From contig JAJTYH010000002.1 in assembly GCA_021463465.1 (NCBI GenBank), positions 1,347 to 65,346 on the forward strand: 64,000 bases of DNA, read 5' to 3'. Position numbers and translations under genes: made by a program. The notes beneath the pieces are model-generated. The model was given only the letters and a program-made list of their open reading frames with translations, was not told the DNA's origin and ran no database searches. Positions 1-64,000 of the stretch are shown here, piece after piece (position 1 is the first letter of the stretch; every line of letters begins with the position of its first letter). This stretch comes from a bacterium (lineage in GTDB: Bacteria > Patescibacteriota > Dojkabacteria > SC72).

Positions 1-1057
1 CGCTTTTAATTATTCCGCCACCAAGGCACTGATTACCATGGTAAACTACAAGGCTTTGTCCTGGTGCAACAGCCCAAGCTGGATCAAAAAAAGACACTCT
101 ATAAGAGCCATTTCTCTCTAACATCTCTAGCTGAATGCTGTAAAGAGACCCTCTATGTCTGACCTGCCCTGAGAGTTGGATTTTATTTGGAATAGGAGAG
201 ATTTGGTTAAAGTTTTCAATTAGAGCTGTATTTGCATACAGTTTGGGGTTATGAGATCCTTTGGCTACATATATAATATTTTGCCCAACATCCTTTCTGC
301 AAACAAAATATGGTTGATCGCTACCGCCAAGTTTTAACCCGTGTCGTTGTCCAATTGTAGTAAACCATACCCCATTATGTTCCCCAACTACCTTTTGGGT
401 GTCAATGTCTATAATCTCACCTTTTTTCTCCTTTAACTCTTTTTTCAAAAAGTCCTTGATATCAATTTTGCCAACAAAGCAGATCCCCTGACTGTCTTTG
501 CGTTTAGCATTAGGTAGTCCGACTTGATTTGCAATCTCTCTGACCTCATTTTTGAGTAAATTAGACAAAGGAAAAATTGAAGCCTCAAGTTGAGATTTGT
601 TTAATTGACTGAGAAAGTATGTTTGGTCTTTATTTTGGTCTTTGGCTCGGAATAGTTGTCCTCCAACTGTTTTACTGTAGTGGCCAGTCGCAATCAATTC
701 CGCACCTTCAGAAGCTGCTCTATTTAAGAACTTGCTAAACTTGATGTATTTATTGCATAGAATATCGGGATTAGGAGTGTTGCCAATAGAGTATTGGTAA
801 AAGAAATCCTCAATCACTGCTTCACGATATTCTTTTTCAAAGTTATAGACCTTGAGTGGAATTCCAAGGTGAGTCGCTACCATATTTGCCCATTCCAAAT
901 CTTCTTTCCAAGGGCACAAATCTTCTACCCCATACTCTTCGCCTGACCAATTCTTCATAAAAACTCCAGTAACATTGTATCCACCTTCAAGTAACAAATG
1001 GGCTGCAACGGCACTGTCTACACCTCCAGATAATCCTACAAATACTTTCTTTTTCAT
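1..1057 (-). CDS. mnmA: tRNA 2-thiouridylase MnmA; the C-terminal end runs off the window start
   Basis: Minus-strand translation begins MKKKVFVGLSGGVDSAVAAHLL (PP-loop SGGxDS) with the start codon at 1057. About 352 aa are visible and align along the MnmA family. No stop is seen before position 1. Confidence 0.85.
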   Translation of the reverse strand, partial: MKKKVFVGLSGGVDSAVAAHLLLEGGYNVTGVFMKNWSGEEYGVEDLCPWKEDLEWANMVATHLGIPLKVYNFEKEYREAVIEDFFYQYSIGNTPNPDILCNKYIKFSKFLNRAASEGAELIATGHYSKTVGGQLFRAKDQNKDQTYFLSQLNKSQLEASIFPLSNLLKNEVREIANQVGLPNAKRKDSQGICFVGKIDIKDFLKKELKEKKGEIIDIDTQKVVGEHNGVWFTTIGQRHGLKLGGSDQPYFVCRKDVGQNIIYVAKGSHNPKLYANTALIENFNQISPIPNKIQLSGQVRHRGSLYSIQLEMLERNGSYRVSFFDPAWAVAPGQSLVVYHGNQCLGGGIIKS

Positions 1058-1083
1058 ATCACTGAGTATATCATGGTCGAGAG

Positions 1084-1566
1084 ATGAGCAAAGCTCTGAA
1101 ATACATATTAATAGTTGTTTTTGTTTTAATTCCAGCTGTCTTTTGGGTAGTTTTGATAAATCCCTTCAAAACCACTGAAACACAGCTTTATGAGATTAAG
1201 GTAGGGGATCAAAAATTGATGGTAAACCTGGCCGAAACGGAGCAGGAACGTTCTAAAGGGCTTTCAGGTAGGGAACGTTTGGATGGCGAGGAAGGGTTAC
1301 TGTTTGTTTTCAGCCGGGATGTTCAGTCGCCTTTTTGGATGCGTGATATGAAATTTGCAATTGACATCATCTTCATTGATCAGAACTTTTTTGTAACTGG
1401 AATTAAAAACGATGCTCAACCGTGCGAGAGCATTTTAAAGTGTCCGTTAATAATTCCTAACGACAAGTACAGGTATGTACTAGAAGTAAACTCGGGATAC
1501 GCTAACTTGCATGGTATTAAAAAGGGTACTCAGCTTGATCTTACATCTGTGACATTACGAAAGTAA
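1084..1566 (+). CDS. DUF192 (COG1430) family protein with N-terminal signal/anchor
   Basis: A 160-aa ORF with an N-terminal transmembrane helix and a conserved DUF192-like core (GLSGRERLDGEEGLLFVF...MRDMKFAIDIIF). Confidence 0.65.
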   Translation: MSKALKYILIVVFVLIPAVFWVVLINPFKTTETQLYEIKVGDQKLMVNLAETEQERSKGLSGRERLDGEEGLLFVFSRDVQSPFWMRDMKFAIDIIFIDQNFFVTGIKNDAQPCESILKCPLIIPNDKYRYVLEVNSGYANLHGIKKGTQLDLTSVTLRK

Positions 1567-2140
1567 CTTTACGAGACCATTCTTTTGGAGTATGTGGATT
1601 GTATCTGGGAGCAATCTCAGCGGGTGTGTTTGCACCACCAGCATAATAGCCTGCCAAACCTCGTGATACTGTCATGATTGCCTCTTCCCAGCTTCGAAAT
1701 GTAAAGGCGGCTTCAGCTCCTCCCCATCCCCAGGCGTTGTACGGCCTGTAAGTATTCCTACCTCCGCTTGATTCAATAATCGAAATTGCTGCTACTAAAC
1801 GGTAATCAATTCGGTAATATTTGGCTGATTGTACAAGGAATTTAGCTTTGGAAGCTAAAGGTGCCCCACGATTTTTTAAATAGTTCTGAACCCGCTTCAC
1901 TTTCCATTCATCAACCTCAAGTGAACCAATTCTTTCAATTAAGGTTAAAGGGACACTTTCAAACTTAGCTAAATTTAAATTCAGGTTAAAGTTTTCAGTT
2001 TTTAGATTGCTATACGCATAAACTTCTCCAGTATAGAAGTATTGTGGTAGTAAAGTCAGGTAGCGTTCAAAGTAACCTGCAAGCAGCAGTAGTGGAATAA
2101 TTGCTAAAAGAATCTTACTTATATATGATGACTTATGCAT
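1541..2140 (-). CDS. membrane-anchored lysozyme-like / lytic-transglycosylase-like protein (paralog A)
   Basis: N-terminal transmembrane helix. C-terminal block DYRLVAAISIIESSGG...YNAWGWGG has an E-S motif reminiscent of GH23/SLT enzymes. Clear paralog of the ORF at 10355-11062 (shared NAWGW(G/R)G and SxxESxxG). Confidence 0.4.
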   Translation of the reverse strand: MHKSSYISKILLAIIPLLLLAGYFERYLTLLPQYFYTGEVYAYSNLKTENFNLNLNLAKFESVPLTLIERIGSLEVDEWKVKRVQNYLKNRGAPLASKAKFLVQSAKYYRIDYRLVAAISIIESSGGRNTYRPYNAWGWGGAEAAFTFRSWEEAIMTVSRGLAGYYAGGANTPAEIAPRYNPHTPKEWSRKVTFVMSQM

Positions 2141-5958: not shown

Positions 5959-6655
5959 GGGCGTTTATCTGTCTTTCTAATTCATCTACAGCCTTATTAT
6001 GTAGATTTATCAACTCATTTAAACGTCTTACTTTTTCGGAACTTGTGAGTTCGAAATAGTTGTTTAAAAAGTAGTTTAACTTCTTAGGGTATTGCGAGTC
6101 GTTTATAAATAAAATGATGCCTTCCACATTAAAACTTTGACAATCGTTGAGAGTTTTATTGTTAGAAATCTGTTTTATACAAGTGGTAAGATTCTTTACT
6201 TGGTAATAATAGTCAATTATTTTAATCCTACCATTTATTTTCAACGCATACTCTTTGATATGTGCTTGTTTGAGGTTGTCTTCTTCTAAGTAACTCTGTA
6301 CCAACATCGATTTTGAACGATATTTAGCTAATTGTGAAAGAAGTTCATCATGAGCTATTAATTCTTCAGTGATATTTAAAGCCTGTGAGGTATATCCATC
6401 GGCTTTTACTAAATTGCCTCTAAAGTCTGAGATATCTTTGTGTCTGCGATTAACAAATGATATAGCCAGCTCTTCATTTTGATTGAACTCATTAATTAGA
6501 GCAGAACGCTCCTGTTCCATCTGAAGAAATGAAGTATTCAATTTGGACAGAAGAGGCTTTAAATATACAACAAGAAAAATCGTGCTAACCACAAGAATAA
6601 TAAAGAGTGGAAGAAGAGGGGGAAATTTGGGATTTAATCTGGAAGGTTGAACCAT
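5951..6655 (-). CDS. hypothetical membrane-anchored protein
   Basis: N-terminal transmembrane helix (LLPLFIILVVSTIFLVVYL). The rest is K/N/E-rich with no recognisable domain. Its stop overlaps the XRE gene stop convergently. Confidence 0.4.
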   Translation of the reverse strand: MVQPSRLNPKFPPLLPLFIILVVSTIFLVVYLKPLLSKLNTSFLQMEQERSALINEFNQNEELAISFVNRRHKDISDFRGNLVKADGYTSQALNITEELIAHDELLSQLAKYRSKSMLVQSYLEEDNLKQAHIKEYALKINGRIKIIDYYYQVKNLTTCIKQISNNKTLNDCQSFNVEGIILFINDSQYPKKLNYFLNNYFELTSSEKVRRLNELINLHNKAVDELERQINAPI

Positions 6656-7218
6656 TTGTCAAATCTTTTCTTGGACTTAACGGCGTAAATATATCCTACA
6701 TAACCAGCAAGAGCAAGAAACCCAGTCACTACTACCCATTTCAATATCATTCCTGTTTTATAATTTTGCGAAACTGGATCAGTAAGCAAGTCGTCAGTAA
6801 AGTTGATTAGAACTGAGCCAGAGGAGGTGTAGTTAGTATTAAATTGCCAGGCTATCACATTGGCGGCAATATTGTATGAACCCGAAGCTTGAGGTTTGAT
6901 TAATGCTTTATACGTATAAGTCTGCCCTGCAATTACTCCAAAAAAACGAGGGTATTTAGGTATAATCTCAACTCCACTCGGAGCATCCCAATCTATCTCT
7001 ACCTTGTTTGAATCTATTGTTGCTGTAAATTCAACAAAGACAGGTACATTCTTATTCCAAGCAGACTGCGACTCTGTATAAACTCGGACTGTAAAATACT
7101 CAAAAGAGGGGTTCGTAGTTGCCCCTGGAACGACAGGAGTCTCCTGCGCAAAAGTTCTAAACGGTAATAGAGTGACTAAAAACAATAGCAATAAGAGTAA
7201 AATTTTCTTCATAATCAT
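6634..7218 (-). CDS. secreted hypothetical protein with C-terminal TM anchor
   Basis: Signal peptide (MIMKKILLLLLLFLVTLLPFRTFA) and a C-terminal hydrophobic segment followed by a basic tail (VVVTGFLALAGYVGYIYAVKSKKRF). Confidence 0.45.
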   Translation of the reverse strand: MIMKKILLLLLLFLVTLLPFRTFAQETPVVPGATTNPSFEYFTVRVYTESQSAWNKNVPVFVEFTATIDSNKVEIDWDAPSGVEIIPKYPRFFGVIAGQTYTYKALIKPQASGSYNIAANVIAWQFNTNYTSSGSVLINFTDDLLTDPVSQNYKTGMILKWVVVTGFLALAGYVGYIYAVKSKKRFDKWFNLPD

Positions 7219-7641
7219 TTATTTTAACAATTTTAAGATGACATCAGAATAGGTTTGAAAAGCATCCACAGCGTCATCGTTATTAATCTCAATGTTCTCG
7301 TGTACGATTTGGTTTCTTAATTTGTGATAAAACCAGATGTCATTATAGGATTTCTTAGATAAAAAGGGTTTTGATTTCTTAAGATTCTCACCGCATCCTA
7401 AACTATTTTTGTGCCTAAGTTGAAGGGCTTTAGACAAAATTGCATCAAGCCTAACAATACCGTCTCTATTTGTATAAGGATTACTCAAAGTCATTGTGTA
7501 TTTAATATCATCAAGCTGTTTGAGTAATTCACTTTTTTCTTTGAAGGGAATATCGCGTGTTTTAGCTAGTGCAAGCAAAAAAATAATTAGAAGACCTATG
7601 ACTAGACCTATTGTTAGCATTAACGCATAATCCTGAACCAT
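7219..7641 (-). CDS. hypothetical protein with N-terminal TM helix
   Basis: A 140-aa ORF with an N-terminal hydrophobic helix, directly abutting neighbours on the same strand. Confidence 0.4.
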   Translation of the reverse strand: MVQDYALMLTIGLVIGLLIIFLLALAKTRDIPFKEKSELLKQLDDIKYTMTLSNPYTNRDGIVRLDAILSKALQLRHKNSLGCGENLKKSKPFLSKKSYNDIWFYHKLRNQIVHENIEINNDDAVDAFQTYSDVILKLLK

Positions 7642-9335
7642 TTCTTGTTAATTCTAACATAAAATATGTTAAGCAAAAAAAGCAGAGCCAAGAAACCTAA
7701 AAAGAGTAATAGCTCCGAAAGTACTTGTGTTTTATCGCTTATTCCTGCAATTTGATTTTCAAAGTTCAGTACTTTCTTATCACCTAAAAGCGTAAATACC
7801 TCTAAAGAAGTTTGAGATGGAAAACTTCGTGTTTGCCCTGGGAGTATAAGTTCGTTGACAGTCCCCGCTTTAACAATGACAGGTACATTGCCGCGGTTTT
7901 CCATGGATCTGTCAAAAGACACTACATCAAAATTAGCATCTACTGTCGTAGCTACCGGTGTAATAACTAAATCATTTTTAGATAAAAAGGGTAGCTTAGG
8001 ATGGGTAGGGTTACTGCTTCTGATCAAAAGCTTGAGATAGTTAGGTGAATTCGGTTCAACCGCACCCTTGCTATGCATGTCTTCAAGTGAGGGATCTAGC
8101 AGAGTCCATTGTTTGGTGTCAAAGTTGTAATACTCAACCCATGAATGGTAGAAACCTTCTTGAGTATAAACTGAGGCTTTGGGAATATAACCGACCACCA
8201 TACGTGCAGGTATTGAGGCATTTCTTAAAAGTGCAATCAGTAAATCTACATAATCTTCAGGTACTGCAAAAACCTTCCGGCCTATCGCAACATCTGCGCC
8301 CCCACGGAGAGCGCTTTCAAAAGATGTATCTGCTGTGAGAGTACTCTTTGGGGCAAGAGAAAGCTTTTCTACCACATATGTATTTAAATCCTCAGGTTTA
8401 AACTCGGGCTTATTTTCTAGAAAACCCTTTACCCTGATAAGCTCAAATTCATTAGTTAAATTCCAGTAACCTTGCGTTAGTAAATCGCTTTCTTGATAAG
8501 TCTCGTCATTTGAAAGATCTTTCTTGATTATGTAGCCAGAAATATTCACAGCTTCCTGTCCCTTTGGATTAACAATAAACCCAAGTACAATGTTTTCATC
8601 ATTGTCTAAACGTTGAGTAATAGGTTGGGGAGAAATTGAGCTAATTACGAACTGCTGTTCACTGTCGGTAAATGGTAGTGTCAGTTCATGAATTACAGGT
8701 TCCTCGCTTTCATTTAGATAAATCTTGTTGAACTCGTACTTGTATGTAGGAGGAGTTCCAAATAAGATTGAGATCTCTTGACCAGTAATTCGAGTGAATT
8801 CGTAAGAATTGTACGAGTAGTTAGTTCTTTTGGTCTGTGCTCCCTCGCTCCAGGATACCGCAGGATCATCTGAAGGGTAGATTAATGTGACTTTTGTGAC
8901 ATCCAACCCTGGTATTTTGCCGATTACTTTTGCAAACCCTCCGCTCTTATCAAAGCCTGAAAGCGATTCAAAGGTGATGTCGAATTCAAAGTTATCTCTT
9001 GGAGGAATGACCTTAGTTCCGAAATTGATTATGAGTTCAGTACCATTACGTTGGAGATGACTTGTCAACTTTGCAGAAGTCGGTTGATTTTTGAGTTTGA
9101 GATTCTGAATACCTTGATAAGGAAGCAGTATCGTGTAGTAGTTAAGTACCGCTGGTTCTCTACTCTTATTCTTTAAATCTATTGTTAAAACCGTATTGAA
9201 ACGTCCTTTCTCGTAAGCATACTCAATTCTACCCGTGGAAGTGAGTTGTTCGGCGGCCAAAGCTCTATCAGAAAAAGCGAGAGGGAGATTAAATAGTAAT
9301 AGGGTCAGAAGAAAAAAGCCAAGTAAATTTTTCAT
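7620..9335 (-). CDS. secreted transglutaminase-like (TGase-core) domain protein lacking the catalytic Cys, with C-terminal TM anchor
   Basis: Signal peptide. The block VPEDYVDLLIALLRNASIPARMVVGY...FYHSWVEYYNFDTKQWTLLDPS matches the TGase-core consensus (GvCEDYA...GIPAR...HaWvEvy...D), but the catalytic Cys position is Pro and the 571-aa protein has no cysteine at all. C-terminal hydrophobic anchor plus basic tail. Confidence 0.6.
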   Translation of the reverse strand: MKNLLGFFLLTLLLFNLPLAFSDRALAAEQLTSTGRIEYAYEKGRFNTVLTIDLKNKSREPAVLNYYTILLPYQGIQNLKLKNQPTSAKLTSHLQRNGTELIINFGTKVIPPRDNFEFDITFESLSGFDKSGGFAKVIGKIPGLDVTKVTLIYPSDDPAVSWSEGAQTKRTNYSYNSYEFTRITGQEISILFGTPPTYKYEFNKIYLNESEEPVIHELTLPFTDSEQQFVISSISPQPITQRLDNDENIVLGFIVNPKGQEAVNISGYIIKKDLSNDETYQESDLLTQGYWNLTNEFELIRVKGFLENKPEFKPEDLNTYVVEKLSLAPKSTLTADTSFESALRGGADVAIGRKVFAVPEDYVDLLIALLRNASIPARMVVGYIPKASVYTQEGFYHSWVEYYNFDTKQWTLLDPSLEDMHSKGAVEPNSPNYLKLLIRSSNPTHPKLPFLSKNDLVITPVATTVDANFDVVSFDRSMENRGNVPVIVKAGTVNELILPGQTRSFPSQTSLEVFTLLGDKKVLNFENQIAGISDKTQVLSELLLFLGFLALLFLLNIFYVRINKKWFRIMR

Positions 9336-9591
9336 ACTTTCTTAGAATCTGTTTAATTAGAGGGGTTTTGCTGGTAATACCCTTCTGTGTAAGCGTTTTG
9401 TCCCAACTAATTTTCTTAGGTGTGTTCGCCAGCCTATATTCGGGGTTTCGAACAATCTCTTGCTTGGCGTTCTTACGAATAACATAATATGACATACCCC
9501 TCATGTCATCAAGTGAATCATGAATTTTGATCCCACTAAAAGAGTATTCGGCAATGATTAATGGTGTCGCTTTAGTATTTGCTAAGCACAT
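9289..9591 (-). CDS. hypothetical protein, translationally coupled to the upstream ORF
   Basis: The frame opens just after a TAA. An ATG (9591-9589) overlaps the upstream ORF's stop. The ORF table offers a TTG start at 9606. Confidence 0.35.
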   Translation of the reverse strand: MCLANTKATPLIIAEYSFSGIKIHDSLDDMRGMSYYVIRKNAKQEIVRNPEYRLANTPKKISWDKTLTQKGITSKTPLIKQILRKYEKFTWLFSSDPITI

Positions 9592-10019
9592 TTCAAAATT
9601 TGGCAAAACAATTGCCTTCTGACCCTTTTCAAGTTAGTGTAGTAAATATCACCCTCGAATTTCTGTCCGAAATCTTGCATCATAAGTACACCTCCACCGT
9701 ATACAACCTCAATCAATCGGGGGTAGCTTTCAACCATATTGGCACGAGTTTTGACGAATTCTATCCCTGCAAGGTTTGGCATAATTACATAGAAATTAAT
9801 CTCTAAATTCTTACTCTTATATATTCCATCTTGATCAAGGCATGTGTATTTGTCATAAAAAGTTTCCGGACATGTGACTTCGTTGTTTAGCAGTTGTTTA
9901 CGGATATCATCAAGGCCGATTCTTTGAATTTGCTGAAATTGTAAGCCTGAGGCCATTAACGTTTCATTTTCAAAATGAATAGGAAAACCAGAGGATTTTC
10001 TCAAATCGATCTTCGTCAT
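9582..10019 (-). CDS. hypothetical protein
   Basis: A 145-aa ORF with no recognisable motif. Its stop overlaps the ATG of the next small gene (ATGTGCTTAG junction). Confidence 0.4.
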   Translation of the reverse strand: MTKIDLRKSSGFPIHFENETLMASGLQFQQIQRIGLDDIRKQLLNNEVTCPETFYDKYTCLDQDGIYKSKNLEINFYVIMPNLAGIEFVKTRANMVESYPRLIEVVYGGGVLMMQDFGQKFEGDIYYTNLKRVRRQLFCQILKCA

Positions 10020-20103: not shown

Positions 20104-21875
20104 ATGCCTGAACTTAAAAGGTTATCGGATGAGTTGATTAGTCAGATCGCGGCTGGAGAAGTGGTTGAACGACCTGCTTCTGTACTTAAAGAATTAATAG
20201 ATAATTCAATAGACGCTGGCGCTACTCAGATAAAGGTAAAGCTCAAAGATGGTGGTCTGAAATTGGTTGAGGTTTCTGACAACGGTAGCGGAATGCCCAA
20301 AGAAAATCTTTTGAAAGCTTTTGAACCGCATACGACAAGTAAGATTTCTAATCTGAAGGATCTTAGTGACATAAGGACGATGGGATTTAGAGGAGAAGCC
20401 TTAGCAACAATACTTTCGGTAGCTCAGGTAGAAGTCACATCAGGGCATGACAAGAGTGCGTATTCAATCGTGTTTTCTCAGGAACGCACACCGAAAAAGG
20501 CGGCTCGGAATATAGGTACGACAGTTTCTGTGGCTAACCTTTTCTTCAATACCCCAGCTAGACTAAAGTTTATGAAGACTGCAGAGACGGAATATCGTAA
20601 GATTTTGGAGGTATTTAATAGCTATGCCTTAGCTTATCCTAAAATTCACTTTATTCTTGAAAAGGATCAGAAAGAAGTCTTTAATCTTCCCTCCAGAAAT
20701 GAGGTGAATTTGGACAAAAACAGGGTATTTGAGGTTCTGAAAAAAGCTTTTGTGGAGCGAATGATTCCGATTAAGTCTGAAGGGGCAGGTATTAAAATTA
20801 TCGGACTGATAGGACATCCTTCGGATAGTGCTGTAAAGCAGAATGAACAGTATGTTTTTGTGAATAACCGTCCAATTTGGGATAACGGTATATCAAGAGC
20901 TATACACCAAGGTCTTTCCCGCTTTATTCCACATATGTTTAAGGTGCCGTTTATTATAAAGCTTTTTGTTAAAGCCGATTTAGTTGATGTAAATGTCCAT
21001 CCACGTAAGGAGGAAGTGAAATTTATCAATCCTTTCAGGGTTTATATAGCTATTGAGCAGGCGGTCAAACAAACCGTAGAGCAAGCGACCCAAATGGCAT
21101 ACACGCCACCATCTTCATTTAAGCAAAGTCAACCTACCAAAGGTTACTTATTTGACAACACTGAGATAACTTATACGAAACAAAACGACGTGAAGGAGGT
21201 GAGATTTGGTAAAAAAACTTCTGATTTTAATATTTCCAGAAGCATTGACTTTACCAAGCATATATTGAGAGCTGAAGATACTCAAACCTTTAAGTCTGAA
21301 CCTTTTAAAGCGGTTTACCAACTGTTTAATAAGTATATTGTCATAGAATTTGAAAGTGGGATTTGGCTGATTGATCAGCATGCGGCAGCAGAGAGAATTA
21401 CCTTTGAAAGGTTAGAGAAACAGTATCAAAGTAAGAAGAAAGAGATTCAAAAGCTTTTGGTTCCAACCACAATTGAGATTAGCGATGCTGAAAGTTCCTA
21501 TTTAAAGGAAAATCAGCAATTTTATGAGGATTTAGGCTTTGAACTTAAAATCAATGAGAATGTTTTAGAGATATATTCCATTCCTTCTTTCTTGATGGTA
21601 GGTGGAGTAGAAGAAGTTTTTAAATCGTTATTTGACATCAAAGACGGAGTTACCGATCTCAAGGATAATTACGAAAAAAAATGGGAGATATTTTTGCTGC
21701 TATTGCCTGCCACAGTAGTGTTAGAGCTGGTCAGGGGCTTTCTACACCTGAACTTATCAACATTTATCAAGAACTAGGTCAATGCCGAAATCCTTTTTCT
21801 TGTCCTCACGGCCGTCCTGCAGTGTGGAAGCTGCCATTGACTGAAATCGACAGTCATTTTTTACGGACATACTGA
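20104..21875 (+). pseudogene. mutL: DNA mismatch repair protein MutL, interrupted by a single-base indel in an A8 homopolymer (21674-21681)
   Basis: The N-terminal 20104-21777 piece carries the GHKL ATPase (ELIDNSIDAGA...SDNGSGM). The conserved MutL C-terminal endonuclease/dimerisation motifs (IAACHSSVRAGQ...CPHGRP) sit in a different frame (21681-21875). The switch coincides with the A8 run; adding one A (or removing two) restores ...DNYEKKMGDIFAAIACHSS. Confidence 0.7.
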
Positions 21876-33510: not shown

Positions 33511-34374
33511 TTACCAGCTTCTTGAGCTACCACCGCCGCCACTTGAACCACCACCAAAGCTAAATCCTCCACCACTACGACCAGAACCAGACCCTGGATG
33601 AAAGATTCCTCGTGAAGAGTACAAAGCTTTACCTATAGCAGTACGAGAAAGAATATAGTCAATTAGAAGGCCCAATAGTCCAGCTAGAATCGGCAAATAG
33701 AATAAGTTGTGTGCGTAACCGTAAACGCCCCCTAGAACAGCCCCTACAACCCCACCAAGCCACCAACTACGTGTTCCAGCTAGTACGTATCCAAAGAATA
33801 TCAAGGCGAAAATCAAAATTTCAAATAAATCATCATCAACTCCCTTCTTCGCATTAACCTGTGATACTACTGTAGGATCTTCTTTAATTAAACCTATTAA
33901 TGCGTTAATTCCATCCTGCATACCTTTATCATAATTACCTTCAATGAAACGTGGCACCATAAATTCGTCTTGTACTCTTCCAGTAAGTGCGTCAGGCAAG
34001 ACACCTTCCAATCCATACCCAACTTCAATCTTAGACTGTCGTTGTGCTGCTGAAACCGAAATCAAAAGTCCATTGTCGACATCTTCCTTTCCAATTTTCC
34101 ACTGCTCAAAAAGCTTTACTGCATAATCTTCTATGGTAGTACCCTGAAAATCGGCAACAGTTACAATCGCAATCTCAACCGTGCTTTCCTTTTCAAACTC
34201 TCCAAGTTGCTGCTCGAGCGTTTGATCATCACTTAAAATATTCTCAAAGTCACTGACAAATCCTTGATAATCAGGAAAAGCTAATGTGGGTTGAGCAAAA
34301 ACCGGCTGATTGTAAAAATACAGACCAAAAAGACTGCATAAAAACAGGCACAGAAGTAAAACTTTTTGCAACAT
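33511..34374 (-). CDS. TPM-domain (YgcG-like) protein with Gly-rich C-terminal tail
   Basis: Signal peptide. TPM core (FVSDFENILSDDQ...EIAIVTVADFQGTTIEDYAVKLFEQWKIG...NGLLISVSAAQRQSKIEVGYGLEG), a transmembrane segment, then a (GGS)n tail. Confidence 0.7.
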   Translation of the reverse strand: MLQKVLLLCLFLCSLFGLYFYNQPVFAQPTLAFPDYQGFVSDFENILSDDQTLEQQLGEFEKESTVEIAIVTVADFQGTTIEDYAVKLFEQWKIGKEDVDNGLLISVSAAQRQSKIEVGYGLEGVLPDALTGRVQDEFMVPRFIEGNYDKGMQDGINALIGLIKEDPTVVSQVNAKKGVDDDLFEILIFALIFFGYVLAGTRSWWLGGVVGAVLGGVYGYAHNLFYLPILAGLLGLLIDYILSRTAIGKALYSSRGIFHPGSGSGRSGGGFSFGGGSSGGGGSSRSW

Positions 34375-59099: not shown

Positions 59100-60059
59100 A
59101 TGAAAACTGTTTTAACAAAATCCGGAAAAGAGCTCTCTCCGATAGGAATAGGCACATATGGGATTGGCGGGAGAGGGCATCGTGATGTAAAGCTAAAAGA
59201 TAAGAAGGACGAATCAATATATGTACCGGCAATAATCACTCAATTACAAACAGGCTATAACTTTTCGGAGATATCTCTGGGGTATGGCCACGGAAAATCT
59301 GCTGAATATTTTGCACGTGCAAGACGAGAGAGTGGAATTGAAAGGGACGAGCTTTTCCTTACCAATTCAATATACCCAAGAGATATTTTGGATTTAAAAG
59401 TGTTAAAAGAAGATGTAGAGAAAATGTATGAAATATTCGAAACAGACTACTTCGATTCAACACTTGTGACACAATCATTAATTGTTAAATTTGGGTATGA
59501 GCAGGTGATAAAGATGCTTTGGGATCTTCTAAAGAAGAACAGAACCAGATATGTTACTCTTTCAAACTCAAATAAGAAACTAATCAAACAATTCCACGAT
59601 GAATTTAAGGGAAGTTTCTTTGCTCATGAAACTCACATCAGCTATGAAATTAGACTATGTCAAGATGAAGGTATCTTTGACCTCTCAAACAAACTCGGTC
59701 TACAAACCATTATTTGGAGACCCTTGCGACAAGGTTTGACAGCACAACACAACTGGGAGCTTCTACTTAAACTCTCTGAAAAGTATGGTAAAACTCAAAA
59801 TCAAATTGTACTCAACTGGATGATGTCACTCGGTTTTAAGCCAGAAGTATTTTCAACATCGATTACTCATATAAAAGAGAATTGGGAAGCAATGCAATTT
59901 GAACTTACAAAAGATGATTATGACGCGATAACAAGGCACCGAATACCAAACTACTCTCCACCAAAGATTAACTGGGATAATATGGGAAATGGGGATAGTA
60001 TCGTCCTGCCTGTTATGAATTTTGAAGAGGATTACAAGAAACCTACTCAGAATCAATAG
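59100..60059 (+). CDS. aldo/keto reductase family oxidoreductase
   Basis: IGIGTYGIGG and an overall 319-aa AKR (TIM-barrel) pattern. Confidence 0.7.
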   Translation: MKTVLTKSGKELSPIGIGTYGIGGRGHRDVKLKDKKDESIYVPAIITQLQTGYNFSEISLGYGHGKSAEYFARARRESGIERDELFLTNSIYPRDILDLKVLKEDVEKMYEIFETDYFDSTLVTQSLIVKFGYEQVIKMLWDLLKKNRTRYVTLSNSNKKLIKQFHDEFKGSFFAHETHISYEIRLCQDEGIFDLSNKLGLQTIIWRPLRQGLTAQHNWELLLKLSEKYGKTQNQIVLNWMMSLGFKPEVFSTSITHIKENWEAMQFELTKDDYDAITRHRIPNYSPPKINWDNMGNGDSIVLPVMNFEEDYKKPTQNQ

Positions 60060-60130
60060 GAAAAGCCTTAAATATCCGACGGATCTGTTTGATTAATCAA
60101 ACTTTATAGTATAGAATCCAGCACTTTCAC

Positions 60131-60370
60131 AAGGAGGTTGTGATGAAAACAAAGAAGAGAGAGCAAGAAAAGAAGACGGGAAAGGGAGGAGGAAGGCAGA
60201 AACAAACGAGAGAAAAGAAAAGGAGGAAAGGCTGGATAAATCGTAAGTAATCACGAAATCTAAAAAGAAAGGAGGTGAGGGAGTTGGCCCAAACCAAAAA
60301 AGAGAAGAAAAAAAAGGAAAAGGGGAAGCAGAAACCGACCGCTAAAACCAACGGCAAGAAAGGACACTAG
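60131..60370 (+). other. 240-bp polypurine (AG-rich) tract with repeated AAGGAGG motifs and two tiny Lys/Arg-rich ORFs
   Basis: The + strand is almost entirely A/G. AAGGAGG-N5-ATG (60143) opens a 35-codon ORF, MKTKKREQEKKTGKGGGRQKQTREKKRRKGWINRK. AAGGAGG-N8-TTG (60284) opens a 28-codon ORF, (M)AQTKKEKKKKEKGKQKPTAKTNGKKGH. Confidence 0.4.
60143..60250 (+). CDS. candidate 35-aa highly basic micro-protein with a canonical SD
   Basis: A perfect AAGGAGG is placed 5 nt upstream of the ATG, and the 35 codons end at TAA. The composition could instead just reflect the purine tract. Confidence 0.25.
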   Translation: MKTKKREQEKKTGKGGGRQKQTREKKRRKGWINRK

Positions 60371-60550
60371 TCCCATTCTGCCTCCAAAAGTGGGCTTATT
60401 CAGATTCAACATCACATGAGTAAGCCCACTTGCAACATTTTTCACACTCTCAACCGTTAAGAAAAATTTTGTTTTCGACCAAAATACTACTATAATACTG
60501 CCACTTCGAACATTTTTGTTGACTCAAATAATTGGAAATCTACTAACCAG

Positions 60551-62317
60551 ATGAGAAATATCTTTAAAATTATAAAGCTAAGCAAACCACTACACGGTTT
60601 GATGCTCTTAATTATTGTAATTGTAATACTTGGAACCCTTTTTGAAATTGTCACACCACTTCTTTCTGGAAAAATCCTAGACGAGGTAATTAGGCAATCA
60701 ACAAACCAAACGAAAGAATTTAGTAAACTCTTCACTCTTTTGGCACTTTCACTTTCATCAATTATCATCTACTTAGCGCTAAGGTCACTAGGGCAAAGAT
60801 TAGGCGACCATCTATCTGGGAAAATAAGAAAATTCCTCACAGAAATATTCTATGATAAAGCATTGAAGATCTCACAATCGTATTATGATTCAGAAATTTC
60901 AGGAAAATTAGTCAACCAGTTAAATAGAGGAATTGCTTCAATACAAGAATTTGCGAATGCCTCAACCAACTTTATCATCCCAACCTTTCTACAATCTTTT
61001 ATTGTTATAGGAATCCTAATGTACTTCAACCTATACTTAGGAATCTTAATGATTTCAATCCTTCCTATCTATCTATGGATTACATCTATCTCAACAAAAA
61101 GATGGGGGCTCAAGGAGGAAGGTAAAAATAAGATTGAAGATTTAACAAGAGGAAGGATTCAGGAGGTGATATCCAATATTAAACTTGTTAAAGGATTTAC
61201 GTCTGAGAAGAGAGAATTTAAGCTGCTTTCAACAAACTTAGACCAAATAAACGCAATATATAAACAGCAAAGTACAGAATTTCACCTTTTTGATTTTTTA
61301 AGAGAGTTAATTCTTAATGTAATCCTTTTTGGAACCGCTTAGATTATCTACAACAATACTTTAAATGGTCTTATTACCGTTGGGTCAGTCATTGTTTTAA
61401 TACAGCTTGTTGACAGAGCAAGATCATCCCTTTTTGGAATGTCATACATCTTAGGACAAATACAAGCAATCGATTCGGGCTCCAAAGAGTTTTTTGAAGT
61501 TTTAAATATTGAGACTACAGAAGATTACAACAAGAAACAAAAGTTTGAAAAAATTAAAAACCCAAAAATTGAGTTCCAAGATGTTACTTTCCAATATGAC
61601 AGTAATAAAACTGTACTAGAAAATGTTTCTTTTGATTTAAGTAAAAATGAAATGGTAGCACTTGTTGGCCCAAGTGGAGCAGGGAAGTCTACAATAGTTA
61701 ATCTGCTTCTCAAGTTCTATAACCCTACCTCAGGAGCCATTACATTTAATGGGAAAAAGTATTCAAAACTCTCACATAACCAAGTTAGGAATAATATAGC
61801 ATTAGTATTTCAAGAGAATGAACTCTTCTCACTATCTATCAAAGAGAATGTTGCATATGGAAGCGATATTGATGATAAGAAAGTCATATCTTCGCTTAAA
61901 AAAGCTAATGCCTGGGAATTTGTAAGTAACTTAGAAAAAGGAATAGATACCTAAGTAGGGGAAAGAGGAATTAAGCTTTCTGGCGGTCAGCGGCAGAGGA
62001 TTCAAATTGCTAGAGCCATATACAAAGATGCACCTATACTAGTACTTGATGAAGCAACATCAAGTTTGGATGCTAAATCCGAAAGTGATGTTTCAGAAGC
62101 TATTGAAAATCTTGTTAAAAATAGGCTAGTTATCGTCATTGCACACAGATTCTCAACAATTCAAAATGCGACAAAGATTATAGTTTTAAATAATAAAAAG
62201 GTAGAAGCAATTGGTGCACCACATATTTTAGCAAAAAAACCAGGTATTTACTCTGAACTTCTTAAGTATCAGATAAAGGGGAATAAGAAACTGCTCAAAA
62301 AGTTTGAGTTGTATTAA
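60551..62317 (+). pseudogene. MsbA/Sav1866-type ABC exporter (TMD-NBD fusion) interrupted by two in-frame stop codons (TAG 61340-61342, TAA 61952-61954)
   Basis: The ORF-table pieces 60551-61342, 61439-61954 and 62066-62317 all lie in one frame. Hand translation across the stops is continuous and conserved: ...LFGTA*IIYNNTLNGLITVG... (TM helix 6) and ...NLEKGIDT*VGERGIKLSGGQRQRIQIARA...VLDEATSSLD... (Walker A GPSGAGKST; signature and Walker B lie beyond the second stop). Confidence 0.75.
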
Positions 62318-62326
62318 CCTTTTGTA

Positions 62327-62818
62327 ATGGATAAAAAAATTTTAAGGGAATTACTTTACGAGTCTGATTCCTCTATTTATGATATTTGTCAAAGTCCAGA
62401 AGAGCTAATTGAAGTACCTTGGGGTAAGATAATTCACGACCAAAGATTACTACCATTACTTGAGCTAATTCTCCCTCAGCTTGATTATGGTTTTAATCTT
62501 AAATTGGAACTCATAGATTGCTCAATTGCACTTGGAGTTATCGAGGCACAAAAACAGCATGGAAGTTATAAAAGGGAGGTGCCTTCAGAGAATCTAGTAG
62601 ATCTCAACTTTACTCGAATTTATATCCCAATTTCTGGTTCAATGCTTTTTTCAATTAATAACGAAAATATAAGTATCGACCCAAAAGAGCTATTGATAGT
62701 ATCAAATCATGTGACCTGCAATTTTATTTCTTTAGAACAAAGACAAACAAAGTTCTTAATTATTGATTTTCCGCCGTTTGAACCTGCGTTTGACACGTAT
62801 TTATCGAGTAATAATTAG
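62327..62818 (+). CDS. hypothetical protein
   Basis: A 163-aa ORF with no recognisable motif. Confidence 0.3.
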   Translation: MDKKILRELLYESDSSIYDICQSPEELIEVPWGKIIHDQRLLPLLELILPQLDYGFNLKLELIDCSIALGVIEAQKQHGSYKREVPSENLVDLNFTRIYIPISGSMLFSINNENISIDPKELLIVSNHVTCNFISLEQRQTKFLIIDFPPFEPAFDTYLSSNN

Positions 62819-62956: not shown

Positions 62957-64000
62957 ATGAAAAAACTCTTGGTAACTATGCTAACTCCTATCCTGATTAG
63001 CTTAATATACCTAGTGCAAACTCCCCAAAACATATCCGCTTCATTAAATACTTGGCTACAAACAGATTGGAGCGGAGGAAATGGACAAACTTCTTGGAGT
63101 GACGACACTAAGTACAACGTATCAAGCAATGTCGTGGCAAATGATTCAATCAGCCTAACAAATAGTAACAATTGGAACGACAGTAACTGGTTATATAGGA
63201 AAAAAATTACCTTTAATAATTCAGCGCAAGCAGAAAACCTTGATAATTTCATCGCAATGGTCAATTTGACCTCAGATAATTTTGATTTCACTAAGACAAA
63301 AGCAAATGGTGAAGATATTCGTTTTTTTGATGAAAACGGTTCAACTGCTTTAGAATATGATATTGAGGAATTTAATCAAAGCGCACAGGAGGCAATTATC
63401 TGGGTAAAAGTACCCAGAATTGATGCATCATCATCAACTGATAACATCATTATGTATTACGGAAATACATCTGCTAATGACTCACAAAACCCAACTTCAG
63501 TGTGGTCATCATACGAGCTCGTTTATCAAATGAATCAAGATCCATCAGGCTCAGCTCCACAAATTCTGGATAGCACAAACAATAATAGAGATGGAACTAC
63601 TTTTGGCTCTATGGCAAGTAATCAGTTGTTAACTGGTAAAATCGGTTCGGGTATTAACTTTGATGGGGTCAATGACTATATTAATGTAGGAAATATGAAC
63701 CCACATACATATGGAAGCGCAACCTTTTCGGCTTGGTATAAGTCATCTATCAATACATCAACTGATGATCAATATATCCTCCTTTATCTAGGTGGAGATA
63801 GACTTGTATTTGGTTTAACTGATGATTCAGGGAAAGTAGATCGAGCTAGGTTCTGTCTTAAGGAAAGCTGTTTCTTTGGTACTACCGATGTTGTAGACCA
63901 ACAATGGCACCATATTGTTGTTGTTAGAGATTATAATTCTACCCACAAACTATTTGTTGATGGCAATCTACAATCAAGTACCGCAGCACCGTTTCTTGGA
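62957..64000 (+). CDS. DUF2341 plus LamG/concanavalin-like domain surface protein; the C-terminal end runs off the window
   Basis: Missing from the ORF table because it has no stop. ATG at 62957 with a signal/anchor (LLVTMLTPILISLIYLV). NWLYRKKITFNN...GEDIRFFDENGSTALEYDIEEFN...IIWVKVPRI matches DUF2341. Then GINFDGVNDYINVG...W...LFVDGN is LamG-like. In frame through position 64000. Confidence 0.6.
   Translation, partial: MKKLLVTMLTPILISLIYLVQTPQNISASLNTWLQTDWSGGNGQTSWSDDTKYNVSSNVVANDSISLTNSNNWNDSNWLYRKKITFNNSAQAENLDNFIAMVNLTSDNFDFTKTKANGEDIRFFDENGSTALEYDIEEFNQSAQEAIIWVKVPRIDASSSTDNIIMYYGNTSANDSQNPTSVWSSYELVYQMNQDPSGSAPQILDSTNNNRDGTTFGSMASNQLLTGKIGSGINFDGVNDYINVGNMNPHTYGSATFSAWYKSSINTSTDDQYILLYLGGDRLVFGLTDDSGKVDRARFCLKESCFFGTTDVVDQQWHHIVVVRDYNSTHKLFVDGNLQSSTAAPFLG

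Follow-up and report, generated by a model that had tools for sequence, protein, structure and literature searches.

The 64-kb stretch of DNA analyzed here over its whole length (hereafter the window, to which all coordinates refer) belongs to an uncultured, small-genome Patescibacteria/Dojkabacteria-like bacterium and carries, at 60551..62317 on the plus strand, a gene for an ABCB-type half-transporter of the ATP-binding cassette (ABC) superfamily that is interrupted by two in-frame stop codons, a TAG and a TAA. The gene is most probably (a probability of about 0.85, based on sequence comparison) a half-transporter inactivated by point mutation and a recent pseudogene of the ordinary kind. 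Judged from the other assemblies of the same clone, it contains a single fixed nonsense mutation, the TAA, and a second stop that is private to this genome record and represents either a later hit or a consensus error.

A single reading frame encoding both domains of an exporter

The gene consists of 588 sense positions in a single frame followed by a terminal TAA, without any insertion, deletion, or frameshift, and exactly two internal stops fall in that frame, the TAG at codon 264 and the TAA at codon 468. The three open reading frame (ORF) pieces that result (60551..61342, 61439..61954, and 62066..62317) are all in the frame of the ABC gene, and the initial annotation, which had described an in-frame TAG and TAA and no frameshift, is thus borne out. 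When the stops are translated as X, Pfam recognizes ABC_membrane (PF00664) at residues 18–286 (E = 3.9e-25, 89.5 bits against a cut-off of 28) and ABC_tran (PF00005) at residues 356–504 (E = 3.9e-35, 121.9 bits, far above the cut-off), and each of the two domains spans a stop. Hydropathy identifies six hydrophobic segments in the N-terminal part of the protein, and the motifs of the nucleotide-binding domain (NBD) occur in the conceptual translation in the order Walker A, Q-loop, X-loop, LSGGQ, Walker B, and H-loop. The arrangement of Walker A, signature, and Walker B around the second stop had been described from the sequence beforehand and is reproduced in this motif map.

The fifth hydrophobic segment extends over residues ~246–267, and codon 264 is located near its outer end, directly before the short polar loop NNTLNG and the sixth segment. 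Codon 468 falls in the X-loop, a motif (TEVGERG) that is specific to ABC exporters, sits directly before the signature, and contacts the membrane domain at its two coupling helices (PMC3971661, PMC6488656). With two internal stops, the TAA being common to all four of the other assemblies that were read across it, the gene lacks the uninterrupted ORF of an ABCB-type half-transporter.

Among proteins of known structure, sequence matches were obtained to the halves of ABCB1 (E ~1e-113), to a lipid A-core flippase of the MsbA type (9bd6, E = 4.9e-70), to Sav1866 (2hyd, E = 1.2e-69), and to BmrA (E ~4e-69). By analogy, the intact ancestral form would encode a homodimeric ABCB-type exporter. The designation of the product as an MsbA-like protein with a transmembrane domain (TMD) and an NBD holds for the Pfam domain pair and the fold, but not for the MsbA family proper, as the scores are below the NCBIfam equivalog cut-offs for MsbA (TIGR02203, 343 vs 602 bits; NF008381, 269 vs 867 bits). 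No NCBIfam equivalog cut-off is reached, and ‘MsbA-like’ therefore refers to the fold only and implies no particular substrate.

Relatives are intact and hold sense residues at both positions

Querying 5.8 billion clustered proteins gave 8000 matches, the best 120 of which were examined. All but one of these 120 are full-length proteins of 547–644 amino acids (aa), mostly of exactly 588 aa, with 54–74% identity to the conceptual translation, and those with names originate from metagenome-assembled genomes (MAGs) of Candidatus Dojkabacteria and other Patescibacteria. The exceptional match (P0002) is 100% identical over 450 aa, has a Leu at codon 264, and ends in EKGIDT, that is, at the TAA. It is the only cluster with more than 74% identity, and no intact allele of the species was found among the clustered proteins or on contigs long enough to score; fragments of such an allele of at least 360 aa would have topped the ranking of the protein search. 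A scan of genome contigs for related loci found nothing closer than 72% identity, and hence no strain of this species that is diverged enough to date the TAA. In the relative at 72% identity the gene is an uninterrupted ORF of 588 codons, its codon 468 reads GAG, and the gene neighborhood is an unrelated one.

Conservation at the two sites was assessed in an alignment of 93 full-length orthologs, nearly all of ~588 aa and all single uninterrupted genes. Codon 264 is aliphatic in 90 of the 93 (I in 52, L in 28, and V in 10), while codon 468 is E in 77 and Q in 7, the others having D, T, A, or N. None of the 93 has a stop at either position; sense residues are present throughout. The expectation of the initial annotation that each stop replaces a single sense residue is correct in that both positions are sense in the orthologs and codon 468 corresponds to the first Glu of the X-loop, but it had the details of codon 264 wrong: the residue was expected to be an aromatic in the sixth transmembrane helix, whereas it is an aliphatic one (Leu, TTG, in the sister assemblies) that hydropathy assigns to the fifth. 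The comparison of orthologous loci that had been suggested as a check thus gives sense codons at both positions, and the full-length relatives do not support two or three separate genes. Because the orthologs are single intact genes with conserved sense residues at both sites, the interrupted gene fits the description of a nonsense pseudogene.

Apart from the stops the protein shows no sign of decay. It departs from the consensus at 5 of the 176 columns with a conservation of 95% or more, each time conservatively, where orthologs do so at an average of 2.0 ± 1.9 columns, and its identity to the orthologs, segment by segment, matches the level between the orthologs themselves, also 3′ of the TAA. 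The lack of decay besides the stops indicates that the inactivation would be recent when measured against protein divergence.

The TAA is shared by the clone and the TAG is private to one record

Independent assemblies of one clone were used in place of read pile-ups, an approach that can tell apart a nonsense mutation that is fixed (the TAA) and a stop limited to a single record (the TAG). The same locus was retrieved by looking up P0002 and a neighboring protein of 163 aa, and four assemblies extend across both stops: the Logan assemblies of SRR17318676, SRR17318675 (in which the contig with the ABC locus measures 288 kb), and SRR17318674, and the NCBI MAG GCA_020853275.1 (JADYZE010000063.1), together designated L001–L004. 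Positions 241..2007 of the last (L004) correspond to 60551..62317 of the window. Short contigs from SRR26868053 and ERR10655368 start 3′ of both stops, and another contig, 332 kb long and not itself read, was reported to have these neighboring genes as well. More generally, practically the same clone recurs in runs of several accession series, namely SRR17318674-79, SRR30163052, SRR26868053, some of the ERR106553xx runs, and GCA_020853275.1. Most of the clone contigs (L001–L019) are 99.8–100% identical to the window, and a few, from SRR30163055 and ERR10655368, are at 99.2–99.4%.

Over 3.7–11.7 kb around the locus, the other assemblies match the window except at two sites, position 61341 and a run of T at 63322–63328. 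At 61341 the window has A, giving TAG, and all four other assemblies covering the site have T, giving TTG (Leu). The TAA at codon 468 is found in all four of the other assemblies read across it. Gene calls in the sister assemblies stop accordingly at the TAA, with a product of 467 aa (P0121, MCC7290375.1) or, from a later start, 450 aa (P0002), followed by a fragment of 83 or 115 aa. The ABC pieces of 263 and 171 aa that are specific to the window are on record nowhere by exact-product look-up, and no exact match to a 40-base pattern that spans the TAG site and has N in place of the variable base was obtained in the GTDB species representatives or the JGI metagenome contigs.

As far as these assemblies tell, the TAA is a genuine mutation and no assembly artefact, and it is fixed in the clone to the extent that the clone was sampled; by the same comparison the TAG is private to the genome record of the window. 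Sense codons in other data, which the initial annotation had named as a sign of assembly or consensus error, were therefore encountered for one stop (TTG in four of four assemblies compared) and not for the other. Its description of the gene as a recent double-nonsense pseudogene is upheld as to a recent nonsense pseudogene, but the two stops are not equivalent, with the TAA in four of four and the TAG in none of the four other assemblies.

A proposed course of inactivation

The first event was the nonsense mutation that made codon 468 a TAA. The ancestral codon was probably GAA, encoding the majority residue Glu and a single step away from TAA, with CAA (Gln) as the alternative. Translation would then end after residue 467, leaving a product that retains the membrane domain with its six helices as well as Walker A and the Q-loop, but presumably without the X-loop, LSGGQ, Walker B, D-loop, and H-loop. 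By analogy to the established mechanism of ABC proteins, a product truncated in this way should be unable to close the ATP-sandwich dimer or to hydrolyze ATP, and the pump would be dead. This inactivation would nonetheless have happened before the clone spread through the runs that were sampled. The second event, the change of codon 264 from TTG to TAG in this record, would be either a later, selectively neutral hit in a dead gene or a consensus error; should the TAG be real, the order of events would be TAA first and TAG second.

Several points weigh against inactivation. The absence of a full-length product is deduced from the sequence rather than shown. The assemblies with the TAA, all at least 99.9% identical, sample a single clone and do not amount to separate evolutionary trials, nor do they allow a test of the ratio of non-synonymous to synonymous substitution (dN/dS) after the stop. 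Further, the family is maintained at a near-fixed length in many relatives, so that to lose it in a successful clone is mildly surprising, and no paralogue that could offset the loss was present within the ~80 kb covered (the window and flanking loci). Lastly, a second stop in the same 1.8-kb gene would be a coincidence of ~0.5% under a model of neutral hits or of errors, a rough estimate derived from 3–5 private substitutions, the gene's share of the window (2.8%), and the likelihood that a random substitution in the gene creates a stop (~5.3%).

On the reading of the gene as a pseudogene, the two-protein NCBI record (MCC7290375.1 and MCC7290376.1) should be marked as one pseudogene, a correction of little importance beyond annotation.

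An improbable functional split gene

That same record could be taken to suggest a functional split gene, as GCA_020853275.1 is annotated with two coding sequences, MCC7290375.1 (467 aa), which would comprise the TMD and the N-terminal piece of the NBD, and MCC7290376.1 (115 aa), a separately initiated C-terminal piece of ~115 aa, the two pieces assembling into an active transporter. The 115-aa call, however, begins at an ATT (61970 in the window), and the only purine run resembling a Shine-Dalgarno sequence abuts that start. The first canonical in-frame start after the TAA is a TTG at 62066, which is past the signature and Walker B, and reinitiation to yield a functional C-terminal piece was rejected as a candidate for the reason that this start lies beyond Walker B. 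The break itself is inside the X-loop, within the fold of the NBD, and 119 of the 120 best matches are single full-length genes. In the window, the TAG breaks the first piece as well. Taken together, these observations make a working split transporter highly improbable.

Readthrough and recoding

The perfectly kept frame and the 120 codons 3′ of the TAA, which are as conserved as in the orthologs, would also be in keeping with stops that are decoded, so that a full-length transporter is made by programmed or leaky readthrough, by a suppressor tRNA, or by pyrrolysine at the TAG. The Gln at codon 468 in 7 of the 93 orthologs suggests that insertion of Gln by a near-cognate tRNA could be tolerated, and a tRNA-Gln(UUG) is encoded in the window. 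If both stops were usefully decoded by near-cognate or suppressor tRNAs, this small-genome bacterium would keep a working transporter, and a TAA fixed in a widespread clone would be a sign of tolerated or regulated low-level expression and not of loss.

Against such decoding stands the ordinary use of both codons as terminators. The 56 other genes of the window end in TAA (38), TAG (13), or TGA (5), and TAA, which is recognized by both release factors, is thus the commonest terminator. The earlier statement that the two codons are genuine terminators in this DNA is confirmed by these 51 of 56 genes, including lexA (TAG) and rplS and uvrC (both TAA). No stable RNA structure was predicted in the 100 nt after each stop, where folding was no better than in shuffles (z = +0.97 and +0.52), and neither a suppressor tRNA nor pyrrolysine or selenocysteine machinery was detected in the ~80 kb of the window and flanking loci, which contain only tRNA-Gly(UCC), tRNA-Gln(UUG), and tRNA-Pro(UGG). 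An Rfam scan of the whole window likewise returned three tRNAs and nothing else. In none of the diverged orthologs is there an in-frame stop at either position, and the TTG of the sister assemblies makes the TAG a fresh change and no conserved recoding site. Useful decoding of the stops, whether by readthrough or by near-cognate or suppressor tRNAs, is accordingly very unlikely. The ranking of readthrough as the less likely reading in the initial annotation agrees with this outcome, given no structure, no suppressor tRNA in ~80 kb, and no conserved stop. For a recently inactivated gene, the preserved downstream frame and 3′ conservation would be retained because the inactivation is recent.

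Two more specific forms of recoding were considered and rejected. Pyrrolysine at the TAG is disfavored by the TTG of the sister assemblies and by a position that is aliphatic in the orthologs, and a genome-wide use of in-frame stops is not supported, as the window has no other conserved gene interrupted in this manner. The other pairs of same-frame ORFs with Pfam matches are separate genes (M23 peptidase/FtsE and LemA/TPM), and the same-frame pair 7219..7641 / 6634..7218 has no Pfam match.

Origin of the TAG

The odds that the TAG is real are roughly even. Compared with the other assemblies of the clone, the window has three private 1-base shortenings of homopolymers, two of which break conserved genes (mutL and a pgi-like gene), while the other assemblies show no private indels. 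In mutL (20104..21777, plus strand) the window has a run of eight A at 21674–21681 where L007, L008, and L011 have nine. The frame shifts at about codon 523, and the product of the window is 557 aa long with an altered tail and no C-terminal CPHGRP, compared to 590 aa with CPHGRP in L007, L008, and L011; the 557-aa product is on record nowhere by exact-product look-up. The pgi-like gene of the cupin type (PF06560; 9289..10019, minus strand) has four T in the window at ~9626–9629 vs five; a single gene of 243 aa in GCA_020853275.1 (L013), it is represented in the window by the overlapping ORFs 9582..10019 and 9289..9606 (145 and 105 aa). The third shortening is the T-run at 63322–63328, which has seven T in the window and in the contig from SRR26868053 (L005) and eight in five others. 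It affects a large gene for a surface-type protein with DUF2341 and LamG (62957..64000, plus strand) that is continuous with seven T and divided into 124 (or 117) and 665 aa with eight. Slippage or phase variation in the homopolymer could account for this run, as could an error or a frameshift that is real in the other strains.

There are also five substitutions relative to the other assemblies, at 34058, 42128, 49013, 49939, and 61341 (S/L, A/P, T/S, T/K, and stop/L, respectively). All five are non-synonymous and four are transversions, numbers that are too small for a test.

Homopolymer shortenings are the classic pattern of consensus errors in long-read assemblies, and a consensus or polishing error, with TTG in the true genome and a gene with a single nonsense mutation, has a chance slightly below even. 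The TAG is seen in none of the four other assemblies, the products specific to the window are unrecorded, two of the shortenings break genes that are otherwise intact and conserved, and the other assemblies are without private indels of their own. Conversely, the seven-T run is reproduced in the independent Logan contig L005 (SRR26868053), which is 100% identical over 1374 bp, and most runs of 7–8 identical bases agree across assemblies. The density of private substitutions (3–5 in ~53 kb) resembles that of the other assemblies (~1 per 12 kb), and a change from T to A is atypical of errors of the homopolymer type.

The pattern is equally in line with a biological route offered by the altered mutL, in which the slip from nine to eight A produced a subclone deficient in mismatch repair, followed by further slips and substitutions, with the TAG as a real later mutation. 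The shortened MutL with its shifted tail, the location of all three private indels in homopolymers (in mutL, the pgi-like gene, and the DUF2341 gene), and the five of five non-synonymous substitutions would be in line with a mutator of this kind. Yet loss of mismatch repair yields mainly transitions, whereas four of the five substitutions are transversions and natural variation in the other strains has transitions to transversions at ~2:1, and sequencing error predicts the same pattern of indels. A mutator origin of the TAG is on balance doubtful, with a likelihood of around one in four. If the private changes (the mutL frameshift, the broken pgi-like gene, and the second stop) are real, the record would capture an uncultured Patescibacteria bacterium in the form of a mutator subclone; if not, it needs polishing before any gene loss is inferred from it.

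Feature coordinates and the upstream region

The features of the interrupted gene are collected in Table 1. The 490-bp stretch 5′ of it (60060..60550) contains no convincing gene and is identical in all assemblies; it includes a purine-rich run of low complexity at ~60300–60360 and has no Rfam match. A scan for promoters and terminators over 60000–62450 found sites no more frequently than in shuffles.

Table 1. Features of the interrupted ABCB-type half-transporter gene, in window coordinates
Feature	Position	Strand	Basis
Whole interrupted gene, ABCB-type half-transporter, 588 codons	60551..62317	+	Single frame; Pfam domain pair; full-length relatives
TAG stop, codon 264, towards the outer end of transmembrane helix 5 (TM5)	61340..61342	+	A at 61341 in the window; T in L001–L004
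Walker A, GPSGAGKS, residues 373–380; 5′ of the TAA, expected to be kept in the 467-aa product	61667..61690	+	Motif map
Q-loop, residues 419–422			Motif map
X-loop, T-[stop]-VGERG, residues 467–473, exporter-specific	61949..61969	+	Motif map
TAA stop, codon 468, in place of the first Glu of the X-loop TEVGERG	61952..61954	+	TAA in L001–L004
ABC signature, LSGGQ, residues 476–480; 3′ of the TAA, expected to be untranslated	61976..61990	+	Motif map
Walker B, ILVLDE, residues 496–501; 3′ of the TAA, expected to be untranslated	62036..62053	+	Motif map
H-loop, AHR, residues 531–533; 3′ of the TAA, expected to be untranslated	62141..62149	+	Motif map

Comparison with known systems

Sav1866, BmrA, and MsbA are homodimeric half-transporters of the ABCB type with the type IV fold, and the gene resembles them in its layout, with an N-terminal ABC_membrane domain of six transmembrane segments and a C-terminal NBD. 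The resemblance to these exporters extends to all of the NBD motifs in the conceptual translation, including the X-loop TEVGERG. Unlike in these transporters, the ORF is interrupted here.

An in-frame TAG and TAA within an otherwise intact frame are also reminiscent of recoding systems, such as pyrrolysine at UAG, suppressor tRNAs, and the reassigned stops of some Patescibacteria and phages. The likeness does not go further, as the stops are not conserved in diverged relatives, the TAG is absent from the sister assemblies, both codons terminate ordinary genes of the window, and the sequence examined holds no machinery or signal for recoding.

The closest counterparts are the recent nonsense pseudogenes of bacteria. 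It differs from them in nothing of weight; the one unusual point is that it belongs to a very uniform family, most of whose members are 588 aa long, and yet is carried in its lost form by a clone that appears in many runs. It is like them in having a stop at a conserved sense position, formed by a normal terminator codon, with intact relatives and no other decay, and a second disabling hit in one sublineage, if the TAG is real, would likewise be a feature of nonsense pseudogenes.

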